Below, piece by piece: positions 32,473-38,388 of a DNA stretch of 64,000 bases. The notes under the pieces are model-generated. The model saw only the letters and a list, made by a program, of their open reading frames with translations. It did no database searches and was not told where the DNA came from. The position numbers and the translations under genes were made by a program. The DNA is from Myxococcota bacterium. GTDB lineage: Bacteria > Myxococcota_A > UBA9160 > UBA6930. The DNA is taken from contig JANQFK010000022.1 in assembly GCA_028277885.1 (NCBI GenBank), forward strand, positions 176,052 to 240,051. The letters are read 5' to 3'. Every line of letters begins with the position of its first letter. The first letter of the stretch is position 1.

Positions 32473-35400
32473 ATGGACGATCCGGGCGCGCACGAGTCGG
32501 CGATCGCGATCGTCGGCATGGCGGGCCGCTTCCCGGGCGCCCGGGACGTCGACGCCTACTGGCGGAACCTGCGCGACGGCGTCGAGAGCATCCGCCGCTT
32601 CGAGGCCGCCGAGCTCGAGGCCGAGGGCGTCTCCGCCGCCTCCCTCGCCGACCCCCACTACGTGCGGGCCGGCGCCCCCCTCGACGACATGGAGCTCTTC
32701 GACGCCGGCTTCTTCGGCCTGAGCCCCCTCGACGCCTCGATCCTCGACCCCCAGCACCGCCACTTCCTCGAGTGCTGCTGGGAGGCCCTCGAGAGCGCGG
32801 GCCACGACCCGCAGCGCTTCCCGGGCTCGATCGGCGTGTTCGGCGGCTCGGGCCACAACGCCTACCTGCCCTACAACCTGCTCACGAATCCCGAGCTGCT
32901 GGCCAAGGTCGGCTTCTTCCTGCTGCGCCACACCGGCAACGACAAGGACTTCCTCACCACCCGGGTCTCCTACTGCTTCGACCTGCGCGGCCCGAGCGTG
33001 AACGTCCAGACGGCCTGCTCCACCTCCCTGGTGGCGGTGCACCTGGCCGGCCAGAGCCTGCTCGCCCACGAGTGCGACATGGCGCTGGCGGGGGGCGTCA
33101 CCGTCGAGCTGCCCCACCGGCGCGGCTACGTGTACCAGGAGGGCGAGATCCTCTCCCCCGACGGCCACTGCCGCGCCTTCGACGCCGACGCCGCCGGCAC
33201 CGTGTTCGGGAGCGCGGCGGGCGTGGTGGTGCTGCGCCGCCTCGCCGACGCCCTCGAGGACGCCGATCCGATCCTGGCCGTGATCCGCGGCTCGGCCATC
33301 AACAACGACGGGGCGGGGAAGGTCGGCTACCTGGCGCCCAGCGTGGACGGCCAGGCCGAGGCGATCTCCGAGGCCCTCGCCGTGGCCGACGTGCCCGCCG
33401 CGTCGATCCGCTACGTCGAGGCCCACGGCACCGGCACCGCGGTGGGCGATCCCATCGAGATCGCGGCACTCTCCCAGGCCTTCGCCGACGCGCCCCGGGG
33501 CGGCTGTGCGATCGGCTCGGTCAAGACCAACATCGGCCACTGCGACACCGCGGCCGGGGTGGCCAGCCTGATCAAGGTCGTGCAGGCCCTGCGCCACGGC
33601 GAGCTGCCGCCGAGCCTCCACTACCGCGCCGCGAACCCCGCCATCGACTTCGCGTCGAGCCCCTTCACCGTGAACGCCTCGCTCCAGGCCTTCCCGGCGG
33701 GCGAGGGCCCGCGCCGCGCCGGGGTGAGCTCGCTCGGCGTGGGGGGCACCAACGCCCACGTGGTGGTGGAGGAGGCGCCGGCCCGGGCGCCCTCCGCGCC
33801 GGCGACGGGCTGGCAGGTGCTGCCCGTCTCGGCGCGCAGCCCCGGGGCCGTGCAGGCGGCGACGGACCGCCTCGCCGACCACCTGCGGCGCCACCCGGAC
33901 GAGAACCTCGCCGACGTGGCCTGGACGCTTCAGACCGGCCGGCGGGCCTTCGCGGAGCGTCGCGTCGCGGTGGGGCGCAGCGCGGCGGAGCTGATCGACG
34001 CCCTCGAGTCCGAGGACGGCGAGCGCCTGCGCGCCGGCCGCGCTCCCGAGACCGCGCGCACGGTGGCGTTCCTGTTCCCCGGCGGCGGTGCCCAGCACCC
34101 GGGCATGGGGCGCGGCCTCTACGAGAGCGAGCCCGTCTACCGGGAGCAGGTCGACGCGGGCCTGGCGCTCCTCGAGCCCGACCACCGCGAGGCGATCCGC
34201 CGCCTGCTGCTCCCTGCGGCGGGGGAGGAGGAGGCGGCGGCGCTCGAGTTCGAGCGGCCCTCGCTCCAGCTGCCCGCGCTCTTCCTCACCGAGCTGGCCC
34301 TCGCGCGGCTGTGGATGTCCTGGGGCGTGCGCCCCGCCGCCCTCGCGGGCCACAGCATGGGGGAGAACACGGCCGCGTGCCTGGCCGGGGTGTTCCGGCT
34401 CGAGGACGCCCTGGCACTGGTGAGCCTGCGCGGCCGCCTGTTCGAGCGCGTCCCCGCCGGCGGCATGCTCTCGGTGCCGCTGCCCGCCGCCGAGCTCGAG
34501 CCGCTGCTCGGCGAGGGTCTCGACCTCGGCGCCGTGAACGCGCCGGACCTGTGCGTGGCCTCGGGTCCGCTCCACGCTCTCGTGGCCCTGGAGGCGCGCC
34601 TGCGCGAGCGCGACGTCGAGTCCCGGCGCATCCGCATCGCCATCGCGGCGCACTCGGCGATGCTCGAGCCGATCCTCGCCGAGTGGTCGGAGTTCCTCTC
34701 GGGCCTCCCGCTCCGGGCGCCCGAGATCCCCTTCGTCTCCAACGTGACCGGCACCTGGATCCGCGACGAGGAGGCCACGGACCCCGCCTACTGGGTGCGG
34801 CACCTGCGCAGCCCGGTGCGCTTCGCCGACGACGTCGCGACGCTCTTCGAGGAGCCCCAGCGCGTGCTCCTCGAGGTCGGGCCCGGCCGCACCCTCACGA
34901 GCCTGGCACGGGCGAGCGCGGCCTGCGCGCCGGGCCACGCGGCGCTGGTCTCGCTGCGCCACCCCGAGCAGGACACGCCGGACCCGCTCTTCGTGCGCCG
35001 GGTGCTCGGCGACCTGTGGGCCGCGGGCGTGGAGATCGACTGGCGCGCCGTGCAGGGCGAGGGGGTGCGCCACAAGCAGCCGCTGCCGACCTATCCCTGG
35101 GAGCACCAGCGCCACTGGATCGAGCCCGGCCGGGCGGCGCCGGCGAGCGCGGGCGAGGCCGGCGGAGCGGGCACCGAGCTTCGCAAGCGACCGGACGTGG
35201 CGGACTGGTTCTCCCAGCCGGTCTGGCACCGACAGCCCCTGGCGGCGGGCCCTGCCTGCGAGAGCGTCGTCGTGCTGGGGGAGGGCGGCCGCCTCGACGA
35301 GGCCCTCGGCCGGCGGCTGCGCGAGGGCGGCGGCCGCGTGGTGCAGGTGACCGCGGGCGATCGCTACGAGCGGCTCGCGGCGGACCGCTACCGGGTGAAG

Positions 35401-38388: not shown

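Follow-up and report, generated by a model that had tools for sequence, protein, structure and literature searches.

A KS-AT-KR-DH polyketide synthase on a relic adenylation subdomain, with a Cys-hydrolase and a pseudo-hydrolase, in a Myxococcota polysaccharide locus: a candidate acyl-transfer cassette

What is a single polyketide synthase (PKS) module doing in the middle of a polysaccharide locus? The question is raised by a stretch of 64,000 nucleotides from a Myxococcota bacterium (assembly GCA_028277885.1, contig JANQFK010000022.1, positions 176,052 to 240,051 of the forward strand), hereafter the window, in whose own numbering all its positions are given. The type I PKS that it encodes ends in a part of a nonribosomal peptide synthetase (NRPS), namely a relic adenylation (A) subdomain, A_sub, and a peptidyl carrier protein (PCP), and is followed by two genes of the alpha/beta-hydrolase fold, here called hydr2 and hydr1 (Table 1). 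We propose, with a probability of about 0.5, that the PKS is one functional extension module that works with hydr2, hydr1 and a phosphopantetheinyl transferase (PPTase) of the Sfp type, and that the short acyl chain it makes would be handed to a glycan-linked acceptor.

Table 1. Position in the window, strand and supporting matches of the cassette genes, the PKS domains and selected neighbours
Feature	Position	Strand	Basis
Type I PKS gene, 1977 aa, KS-AT-KR-DH-[relic A_sub]-PCP	32455..38388	+	ORF/translation, Pfam and NCBIfam
Ketosynthase (KS) domain, aa 16-440, Cys-His-His intact	32500..33774	+	PF00109, PF02801
Acyltransferase (AT) domain, aa 539-841, GHSMGE, Arg117 and I-A-A-H tetrad	34069..34977	+	PF00698
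Ketoreductase (KR), structural subdomain aa 947-1105 and catalytic subdomain aa 1156-1350, B-type LDD	35293..36504	+	PF21394, PF08659
Dehydratase (DH) domain, aa 1377-1659, placed after KR	36583..37431	+	PF21089, PF14765
Relic NRPS A_sub, A8 tail to A10, no A core	37735..37989	+	PF13193
PCP-type carrier domain, DLGGHSLLA	38041..38226	+	PF00550
hydr2, alpha/beta-fold protein, Arg at nucleophile elbow, probable pseudo-enzyme partner	38399..39205	+	TIGR03101, sub-threshold
hydr1, alpha/beta hydrolase, Cys at nucleophile elbow	39202..40095	+	TIGR03100, sub-threshold
Sfp/HetI-type PPTase, start uncertain between 22772 and 22910	22772..23629	+	PF01648, PF22624, HetI best match
Glycosyltransferase of family GT4, directly after hydr1	40103..41221	+	Pfam; TIGR03088 (XrtA-system GT) best, sub-threshold
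GT4 glycosyltransferase upstream of PKS, start approximate	30915..32147	+	Pfam, NCBIfam; conserved in locus L004
EpsI-family protein (exosortase-associated)	26014..26853	-	TIGR02914, 103.8 bits, above cut-off 42.8; PF11984

Since the G+C content of the window is about 75% throughout, genes were called by third-position GC periodicity. The open reading frame (ORF) of the PKS is uninterrupted from a GTG at 32455 to the stop at 38388, with a third-position G+C content (GC3) of 0.96, and its translation is identical to an NCBI protein of 1977 aa (P0001). A preliminary description of this DNA gave the same stop but began the gene at an ATG at 32473, which lies six codons inside the GTG-initiated frame. 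The domain order that it reported, KS-AT-KR-DH with the KR ahead of the DH, is borne out by the Pfam placements, and a KS-AT linker is present between the first two domains. What it overlooked is the C-terminus, in which AMP-binding_C is placed at aa 1764-1832 and PP-binding at aa 1863-1924. Its statement that there is no loading domain and no thioesterase (TE) holds for the ORF itself, but the two alpha/beta-hydrolase genes lie directly 3' of it.

About 50 homologues with the PKS architecture were found. The motifs quoted previously (TACSTS, EAHGTGT and NIGHC in the KS, GHSMGE in the AT, TGGLGGLG, LDD and YTAANAFLD in the KR, HRLRGGVPLLPGTG and HPALLDM..Q in the DH) are all in the translation, and the claim that the catalytic motifs are intact agrees with their conservation in 49 homologues. 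The KS exhibits TACSTS in 48 of the 49, and both of its His residues are conserved. In the KR the Rossmann motif TGGLGGLG, APKVRG, SSISA and YTAANAFLD are all conserved and the Lys-Ser-Tyr residues are kept, while the LDD motif indicates a B-type ketoreductase. The DH is the most divergent and least conserved catalytic domain of the PKS family; the His of HxxxGxxxxP and the Asp of DxxxQ/H are conserved in the family, and the Tyr of the YGP motif is replaced by Phe in the window PKS (HLAFGRRW) and by Phe or Leu family-wide. Judged by their catalytic residues, neither the KR nor the DH is a pseudo-domain, and DH activity is likely though uncertain.

The AT carries GHSMGE in 46 and [VI]AAHS in 48 of the 49 homologues, and the Arg found 25 residues after the Ser of GHSMGE corresponds to Arg117. 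The residues AAHS, as read in the preliminary description, are present, but that reading is one residue out of register, the tetrad in the register of FabD being I-A-A-H. Its view that the extender unit is unpredictable is supported, and no genes for extender-unit biosynthesis were found in the window. The nearest solved relatives are the AT of the zwittermicin enzyme ZmaA (4qbu, 260 bits, with GAAH) and 5yda (255 bits, with AAAH). The latter is probably the broadly selective splenocin SpnD-AT; a literature search on 5YDA returned nothing relevant. The ZmaA-AT is specific for hydroxymalonyl on an acyl carrier protein (ACP), and ATs that use ACP-linked extenders present a hydrophobic MxW/MxM at the carrier-recognition position (PMC4207774). 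Considering that E-S-R replaces this hydrophobic motif in the window PKS ([ED]-x-R across the family), the use of hydroxymalonyl-ACP as in ZmaA is unlikely; this extender was rejected on the missing MxW and on the lack of FkbH-type genes in the window. We infer a malonyl-type extender, linked to CoA, and space for a substituent at its alpha position.

The C-terminal stub, residues ~1760-1935, aligns to the A-PCP junctions of NRPSs, best to that of LgrA (172 bits) and also to those of SrfA-C and TycC. The alignment starts at the A8 tail ('LRGIE') and runs through A10; no A core was detected, as there is no PF00501 match in the PKS and only ~100 aa lie between the DH and A_sub. The A10 motif reads DGELDRRALP in the window PKS, with a Glu in place of the catalytic Lys. 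The position varies freely among the stubs, of which 6 of 54 present the Lys, versus 35 of 35 genuine A domains (loader, terminal and other) from related loci. The PCP, which is of NRPS type and stands behind the relic subdomain, has a Ser that is invariant in the 54 stubs, and in 89 of 89 sequences when the carriers of genuine A domains are added. Mean column identity is 0.49-0.63 over the A_sub stub and 0.70 over the PCP, and falls to 0.25 in the preceding linker.

A tree of these sequences groups the 54 stubs together in one clade and so speaks for a single origin of the stub; the midpoint rooting is uncertain, and the tree leaves a loader A-PCP and a terminal A-PCP undistinguished as its source. 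From these alignments, A_sub is read as a catalytically dead relic, arisen once and under selection. Being dead yet conserved, it would have a structural or recognition role, and its retention suggests that the release enzymes recognise it. A derivation of the stub from TIGR03098, the acyl-CoA ligase associated with XrtA, was also considered; the model gave no match and the stub is of NRPS type.

The KR-then-DH order had suggested an analogy with PfaA, and here the order stands but the sequence affinity does not. The PfaA model TIGR02813 gives 294.7 bits for the PKS against a cut-off of 1010, and the best matches are modular or hybrid PKSs. The model NF045894 (PKS_plus_SDR) reaches 1009.5 bits against a cut-off of 1740, with its best stretch over aa 16-898, i.e. 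the KS-AT region. The nearest structures in the PDB are 8xjy/8xju, 7zma, CurL and DEBS for KS-AT, the KRs of PksJ, MlnE and MAS for the KR, to which the A-KR-PCP module 6ulw also matches, and the curacin and GphF DHs for the DH. Moreover, two-module relatives (P0004 and P0007) also hold the KR-then-DH order, in KS-AT-KR-DH-ACP modules, so that this order is a trait of a wider clade and no evidence of PfaA ancestry. By its scores, its structural neighbours and the order in these relatives, the PKS is predicted to be of modular/hybrid type, and an identity as a PfaA-type synthase of polyunsaturated fatty acids (PUFA) or as an HglE-type enzyme is rejected.

With modular cis-AT and hybrid NRPS-PKS systems (NF045894, 8xjy/8xju, CurL 4mz0, DEBS) the window PKS shares the KS-AT didomain, the KS-AT linker and a KR with a structural subdomain and, as in hybrid modules, an NRPS module feeds the KS in its relatives. 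Unlike modular cis-AT modules, it has the DH after the KR, the PCP behind a relic A_sub and no TE. PUFA synthases and enediyne PKSs (PKSE) are built as KS-AT-ACP(n)-KR-DH, and the window PKS has in common with them the KR-then-DH order and the lack of an enoylreductase (ER). Unlike PfaA, it has no ACPs (PP-binding) between AT and KR and no PfaB/C/D partners and, unlike PKSE with its integrated C-terminal PPTase, it ends in A_sub-PCP, with the PPTase encoded by a separate gene 9 kb upstream. NRPS modules with an interrupted A domain (depsipeptide A-KR-PCP, 6ulw, whose match covers PKS residues 914-1357) likewise present a KR and then an A subdomain and a PCP on one polypeptide. Unlike them, with their working A core and intact A10 Lys, the window PKS has KS-AT instead of the core and a DH between KR and A_sub.

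The spacing of the three genes, with hydr2 starting 10 nt past the PKS stop and hydr1 overlapping hydr2 by ATGA, indicates that PKS, hydr2 and hydr1 are translationally coupled. In hydr2, the nucleophile elbow expected as G-x-S-x-G reads G-L-R-L-G; the Arg is kept in all loci examined, and there is no conserved His. In hydr1 the elbow is G-L-C-S-G-A-D, and C111, D134 and H254 are invariant. The Arg of hydr2 aligns with the Cys of hydr1 in BLASTP and, in an AlphaFold2 model of hydr1 (pLDDT 83), C111 lies between strand 104-110 and helix 112-123, i.e. at the elbow position. In a fold search, the matches of hydr1 were confined to generic esterases and lipases and the curacin TE (TM ~0.55), and the 50 best included no polyhydroxyalkanoate (PHA) synthase.

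The Arg and Cys signatures persist in pairs that are only 32-38% identical to that of the window, and the Variovorax pair keeps them as G-A-R-L-G and G-M-C-S-G. The two proteins are fused in Burkholderia arboris (602 aa, L082 7149-8957), in Azospirillum brasilense (611 aa, L080 8155-9990) and in two metagenomic proteins (P0267 and P0373), and these fusions retain G-L-R-x-G and G-x-C-x-G. Their fusion in several lineages argues that hydr2 and hydr1 work as one unit. The hydr1 family comprises 2443 clusters at 50% identity (E <= 1e-30), and G-x-C-x-G-A is present in 135 of its 150 best representatives. Close to the Azospirillum fusion are genes for an ACP, for a member of the acyl-CoA dehydrogenase family and for an amino-acid--[ACP] ligase.

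How far the pair and the PKS travel together was determined by a hydr1-profile scan of species-representative genomes, which gave 68 loci (these and all other loci are numbered with L), and by a tblastn census of these. The loci are labelled Gemmatimonadota in 46 cases, the rest being Myxococcota/Deltaproteobacteria, Gamma- and Betaproteobacteria, Acidobacteria and others. A PKS of the window type is found directly upstream of hydr2 in 48 loci, and among the PKS-bearing loci fetched only L051 departs from the order PKS, hydr2, hydr1, its hydr1 being upstream of the PKS. In five loci the PKS is missing and hydr2 directly follows an NRPS A-PCP, and in another five the pair is present with no carrier upstream. 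Among the 48 PKS loci, an A-PCP/NRPS loader stands just upstream of the KS in 32, 9 are loaderless and 7 are cut by contig ends. In L008, for instance, the line reads C-A-PCP-C-A(luciferase-like insert)-PCP, PKS, hydr2, GDSL, hydr1, Wzx (C, condensation domain). The loader A domain that feeds the PKS has an insert of ~1 kb in several loci (L008 1-2084; L016, L021, L023 and others). The L008 insert matches Bac_luciferase, of monooxygenase type, so the starter there may be an oxidised amino acid.

The earlier description of the module as stand-alone is true insofar as the ORF has no loading domain, and fails in that the gene is part of a conserved cassette, composed of the PKS with its dead A_sub and PCP, hydr2, hydr1 and an Sfp-type PPTase, into which an NRPS loader feeds in most relatives. 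The PPTase also accompanies the cassette in L001, L004, L034, L037, L053, L070 and Variovorax. Among the top protein matches, nine full-length orthologues exhibit the same Pfam architecture at 53-74% identity, and their contigs share the succession PKS, hydr2, hydr1, GT4, FemAB-like GNAT, cupin and, further on, Wzx, GT2 and DegT. In a neighbour-joining tree, with midpoint rooting only, the window PKS is monophyletic with those of L004, L003, L007, L012, L014, L013 and L026. No loader is found in the members of this clade with intact upstream sequence, and all members are scored as lying in exopolysaccharide (EPS) loci, except for a short L004 duplicate used in the tree. Nested as it is among loader-bearing relatives, the loaderless clade may have lost its loader secondarily. 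The loci nearest to the window are labelled as Myxococcota or Deltaproteobacteria metagenome-assembled genomes (MAGs), and the close PKS relatives are all from uncultured organisms. An NRPS version, in Variovorax paradoxus VAI-C (L081), presents an NRPS, PPTase, hydr2 and hydr1, with wza/wzc/sugar-transferase EPS genes directly after them.

The window in its entire 64 kb is a polysaccharide locus, with several GT4, GT2 and PMT_2 genes, two Wzx and a DegT gene, three FemAB-like GNATs, polysaccharide deacetylases, SGNH/GDSL proteins, a Wzb-type phosphatase, a sulfotransferase, a sulfatase, a methyltransferase-GT fusion, a DltB-like MBOAT and an Asn synthase. The flanking genes had been described as a flippase, GT4 genes, hydrolases and an Sfp-type PPTase ending at 23629, and the Pfam and NCBIfam matches agree. 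The GT4 that directly follows hydr1 is syntenic across the loaderless clade.

In this setting, an acyl decoration of a polysaccharide or a protein, suggested previously, is supported as the most plausible role, and the steps could be as follows. The PPTase would convert the PCP into its holo form, and the AT, with Arg117 and a roomy I-A-A-H pocket, would load a malonyl-type extender, possibly substituted. The KS would condense this extender with a starter, perhaps an acetyl group left by the decarboxylation of malonyl, perhaps an acyl-CoA or acyl-ACP; the B-type KR would give the (3R)-hydroxyacyl and the DH the (E)-2-enoyl-S-PCP. The chain would then move to Cys111 of the Cys-His-Asp protein hydr1, forming a thioester acyl-enzyme, and hydr2 would act as a non-catalytic partner or adaptor that may recognise the retained A_sub-PCP. 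The acyl group would finally pass to an acceptor supplied by the neighbouring glycan genes (DegT aminotransferase, FemAB-like transferases, GT4, GT2, Wzx), most likely resulting in an N- or O-acylated sugar or aminoacyl-sugar of an exopolysaccharide. The transfer of a carrier-held acyl group to a polymer or other acceptor by a dedicated transferase is known from the D-alanylation of teichoic acids (DltA/DltC/DltB/DltD) and from LovF, whose ACP delivers to the alpha/beta-fold acyltransferase LovD. Unlike in those systems, hydr1 and hydr2 have no sequence relationship to DltB/DltD or LovD, and the acyl group would be PKS-made.

This functional assignment was drawn wholly from sequence and synteny, and several points weigh against it. 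There is no adjacent supplier of a starter, and no loader within the 64 kb except a distant PaaK-like ligase. Given a DH that lacks the canonical YGP Tyr and is the least conserved domain, the released chain may be a 3-hydroxyacyl, not a 2-enoyl. Both hydrolases score below the cut-offs of the families they match best, and neither an exosortase nor a PEP-CTERM protein is securely found in the window. Instead of passing the chain to the putative acceptor, hydr1 may just cleave the thioester by hydrolysis. Nor is the cassette confined to glycan loci, as in L001 it stands beside a TonB receptor, with no glycan genes; since an NRPS feeds it in most Gemmatimonadota, the family as a whole may make free lipopeptide or polyketide products.

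These last points lead to the best-surviving alternative, which we judge somewhat unlikely, namely that hydr1 is a hydrolytic Cys thioesterase and that the product is a free small molecule, a secreted acid or lipid or a glycolipid aglycone for the neighbouring glycosyltransferases. On this view, the co-localisation with EPS genes would reflect co-regulation or glycolipid assembly and not polymer decoration. The PKS is indeed the last module of an NRPS-PKS line in 32 of 48 loci, such as L008, some of these lines (L001) are without glycan genes, and the fold of hydr1 is nearest to ordinary esterases and the curacin TE. However, a Ser thioesterase would suffice for hydrolysis, and the family keeps a Cys nucleophile together with an obligate pseudo-hydrolase partner, fused to it in several lineages, a combination more characteristic of transferring than of hydrolysing enzymes. 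The loaderless clade, moreover, lies wholly within polysaccharide loci, as do the relatives in Variovorax and Azospirillum.

More tentatively, the acyl-transfer proposal can be widened beyond the window, in a form that we regard as possible though doubtful. The [A_sub]-PCP, hydr2, hydr1 and PPTase may constitute a widespread, unrecognised off-loading machine that couples thiotemplate lines (A-PCP, NRPS or PKS) to cell-surface polymers. A heterodimer of pseudo-hydrolase and Cys-hydrolase would recognise A_sub-PCP and transfer the chain to an exopolysaccharide repeat unit or to a PEP-CTERM-sorted protein; in the window lineage, KS-AT-KR-DH would have replaced the adenylation core, giving a polyketide-acylated EPS.

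The EPS locus of the window, like those of its loaderless clade, has a PEP-CTERM flavour, and a connection to PEP-CTERM proteins and exosortases is suggested by the families of the pair. The best NCBIfam match of hydr2 is TIGR03101 (hydrolase 2, exosortase A system-associated), with 107 bits against a cut-off of 202.75, and that of hydr1 is TIGR03100 (hydrolase 1, exosortase A system-associated), with 111 bits over the full length (2-273 of 274) against a cut-off of 168.45; nor do any of the pairs from Burkholderia, Azospirillum, Variovorax and the distant MAGs reach these cut-offs. The two models are the best and nearly the sole specific NCBIfam matches of the window pair. According to their TIGRFAM descriptions, TIGR03100 and TIGR03101 proteins occur in PEP-CTERM EPS loci together with an acyl-CoA ligase (TIGR03098), an ACP and a pyridoxal phosphate (PLP)-dependent decarboxylase (TIGR03099). 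The XrtA hydrolases 1 and 2 are likewise two adjacent, related alpha/beta-fold proteins beside a carrier-loading enzyme in an EPS locus and likewise have no characterised function, our literature search having found none assigned to the genes that accompany exosortase-A systems. Unlike in the XrtA systems, the carrier of the window is loaded by a PKS module and not by a ligase, there is no decarboxylase, and the window has no secure XrtA.

It could be supposed from this that the cassette builds an acyl or lipid-like acceptor or anchor for exosortase-processed surface proteins, an idea said to have been raised by the TIGRFAM authors of the XrtA-associated ligase, ACP, hydrolase and decarboxylase models; we consider it quite unlikely. 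In addition to the family matches of the pair, the window encodes two proteins above the cut-offs of PEP-CTERM-linked models, EpsI (TIGR02914) and a CAAX-protease relative (TIGR03008, 97.1 bits, cut-off 81.05), as well as a relative of the XrtA-type Asn synthase. Canonical PEP-CTERM proteins (...VVPEPATLALLGMGVLGLGIAGRRR; VVPEP-TM-RRR) are found ~4-5 kb upstream of the PKS in L003 (5567-6253) and L007 (4431-5123). Against this stand the absence of PEP-CTERM substrate proteins from the window, by motif scan and by tblastn, the sub-threshold scores of the hydrolases, the many cassette loci without any PEP-CTERM features, and the lack of a recognisable exosortase in the window. Its only trace is a faint match to the XrtW N-terminus (E 0.0024, 16 bits) in a polytopic membrane protein of 267 aa (50866-51669, minus strand), which shows no evident canonical Cys motif and, if an exosortase at all, would be a highly divergent one. 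A full-length homologue of this ORF, 36% identical, occurs in L013 (17931-18701, minus strand), ~8 kb downstream of hydr1. Two other proteins were rejected as exosortases: the 436-aa membrane protein beside EpsI, which has a VanZ-like N-terminus and no exosortase match, and the product of a 319-aa ORF ahead of the CAAX-protease relative, which matches only DUF4124.

EpsI is known as a partner of, or a fusion to, EpsH exosortases (PMC1569441). In the window it follows instead the VanZ-like membrane protein (436 aa, 26850-28160, minus strand), whose gene lies upstream and overlaps it, which suggests an operon. The VanZ-EpsI pair recurs in L004 (3450-5329, minus strand), the VanZ-like proteins having ~400-436 aa, and VanZ-like genes stand just upstream of the PKS in L003, L007, L009, L013 and L026. 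The Asn synthase, glutamine-hydrolysing and cut by the window end (63029-64000, plus strand), has the XrtA/PEP-CTERM amidotransferase TIGR03108 as its second-best model, and its homologues lie <=10 kb from hydr1 in eight other loci (L019, L023, L028, L042, L066, L067, L075 and L076).

An iterative PKS, self-primed from malonyl, could also be envisaged, which would make a conjugated polyene like the PKSE and PUFA-type enzymes and have it released by the hydrolases. The KS-AT-KR-DH content without ER or loader, and the KR-DH order as in PfaA and PKSE, would suit such an enzyme; its affinity to modular/hybrid PKSs, the absence of an integrated PPTase and of tandem ACPs, and the nesting of the loaderless clade among plainly single-use modules behind NRPS loaders make this improbable. 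Finally, decay could be supposed, the gene being what is left of an NRPS-PKS line that lost its loader and makes no product. This is hardly credible, for all that the loader is absent, A_sub is dead and the DH lacks its YGP Tyr: the 5.9-kb ORF is intact at a GC3 of 0.96, and the loaderless clade, at 55-74% identity and with its synteny conserved, has lost none of the catalytic residues, which indicates purifying selection.

The components of the acyl-transfer cassette are all of known kinds and it is their combination that is new: a KS-AT-KR-DH block on a relic A_sub-PCP, predicted release by a Cys-hydrolase with a pseudo-hydrolase, and a loaderless form in an EPS locus. The literature search found no description of this PKS architecture, of a function for the hydrolase pair, or of a PKS linked to exosortase loci, and nothing relevant on exosortases with a PKS, ACP or ligase or on PKS/EPS in Gemmatimonadota. 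The possibility of a known pathway was also checked, and no characterised one with this exact architecture turned up. If the proposal is true, the cassette would be a route that puts polyketide- or NRPS-built acyl groups onto bacterial exopolysaccharides, mostly in uncultured Gemmatimonadota and Myxococcota-like lineages, with relatives of the pair in Variovorax, Burkholderia and Azospirillum, and such acylation would alter the hydrophobicity of the matrix, flocculation and adhesion. The off-loading machine, if real, would moreover give a function to the long-unexplained XrtA-associated hydrolase 1 and 2 genes, for which the cassette also provides a testable handle. For PKS enzymology, it is a case from nature in which a KS-AT-KR-DH block has been joined to the A_sub-PCP of an NRPS. 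For experiments, V. paradoxus VAI-C, with its NRPS version, is the easiest system to reach.

Some further observations concern the surroundings of the PKS. No adenylating loader is found near it in the window. The only adenylating enzyme of the window, a PaaK/F390-synthetase-like ligase (59240-60337, minus strand) whose best matches are BagE/FevW and the DVU_1553 family, was rejected as a loader; it lies 21 kb from the PKS, and the flanks fetched for the sister loci contain no homologue of it. An SGNH/GDSL-like protein and, after it, a DltB/AlgI-type MBOAT (1781-4112, plus strand; TIGR04091, 166 bits, below cut-off) resemble a system that O-acylates an extracytoplasmic polymer from a carrier or from CoA, and could be an alternative route for acyl transfer to the EPS. 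The sulfotransferase (PF13469, 57015-57986, plus strand) and the sulfatase (PF00884, 11522-12895, minus strand) are a hint of a sulfated polysaccharide. Directly after the PPTase lies a LOG/TIGR00730-family Rossmann protein ('lysine decarboxylase-like', 23554-24387, plus strand), which is 87% identical in L004 (2758-3441).

As for regulation, the window presents no Rfam families and no sigma-54 promoter, and no sigma-70-like promoter or terminator was detected at 31900-32600. In the sister loci L003, L007, L002 and L009 a textbook sigma-54 promoter, TGGCAT-N5-TTGCT, is found ~60-100 nt upstream of the PKS start. The window and L004 share, in the region upstream of the PKS (32148-32454), a conserved block richer in A+T (32195-32234, GATTGAAGCTTTC...), which in the window includes a 7-bp hairpin, AGCTACT-N7-AGTAGCT.

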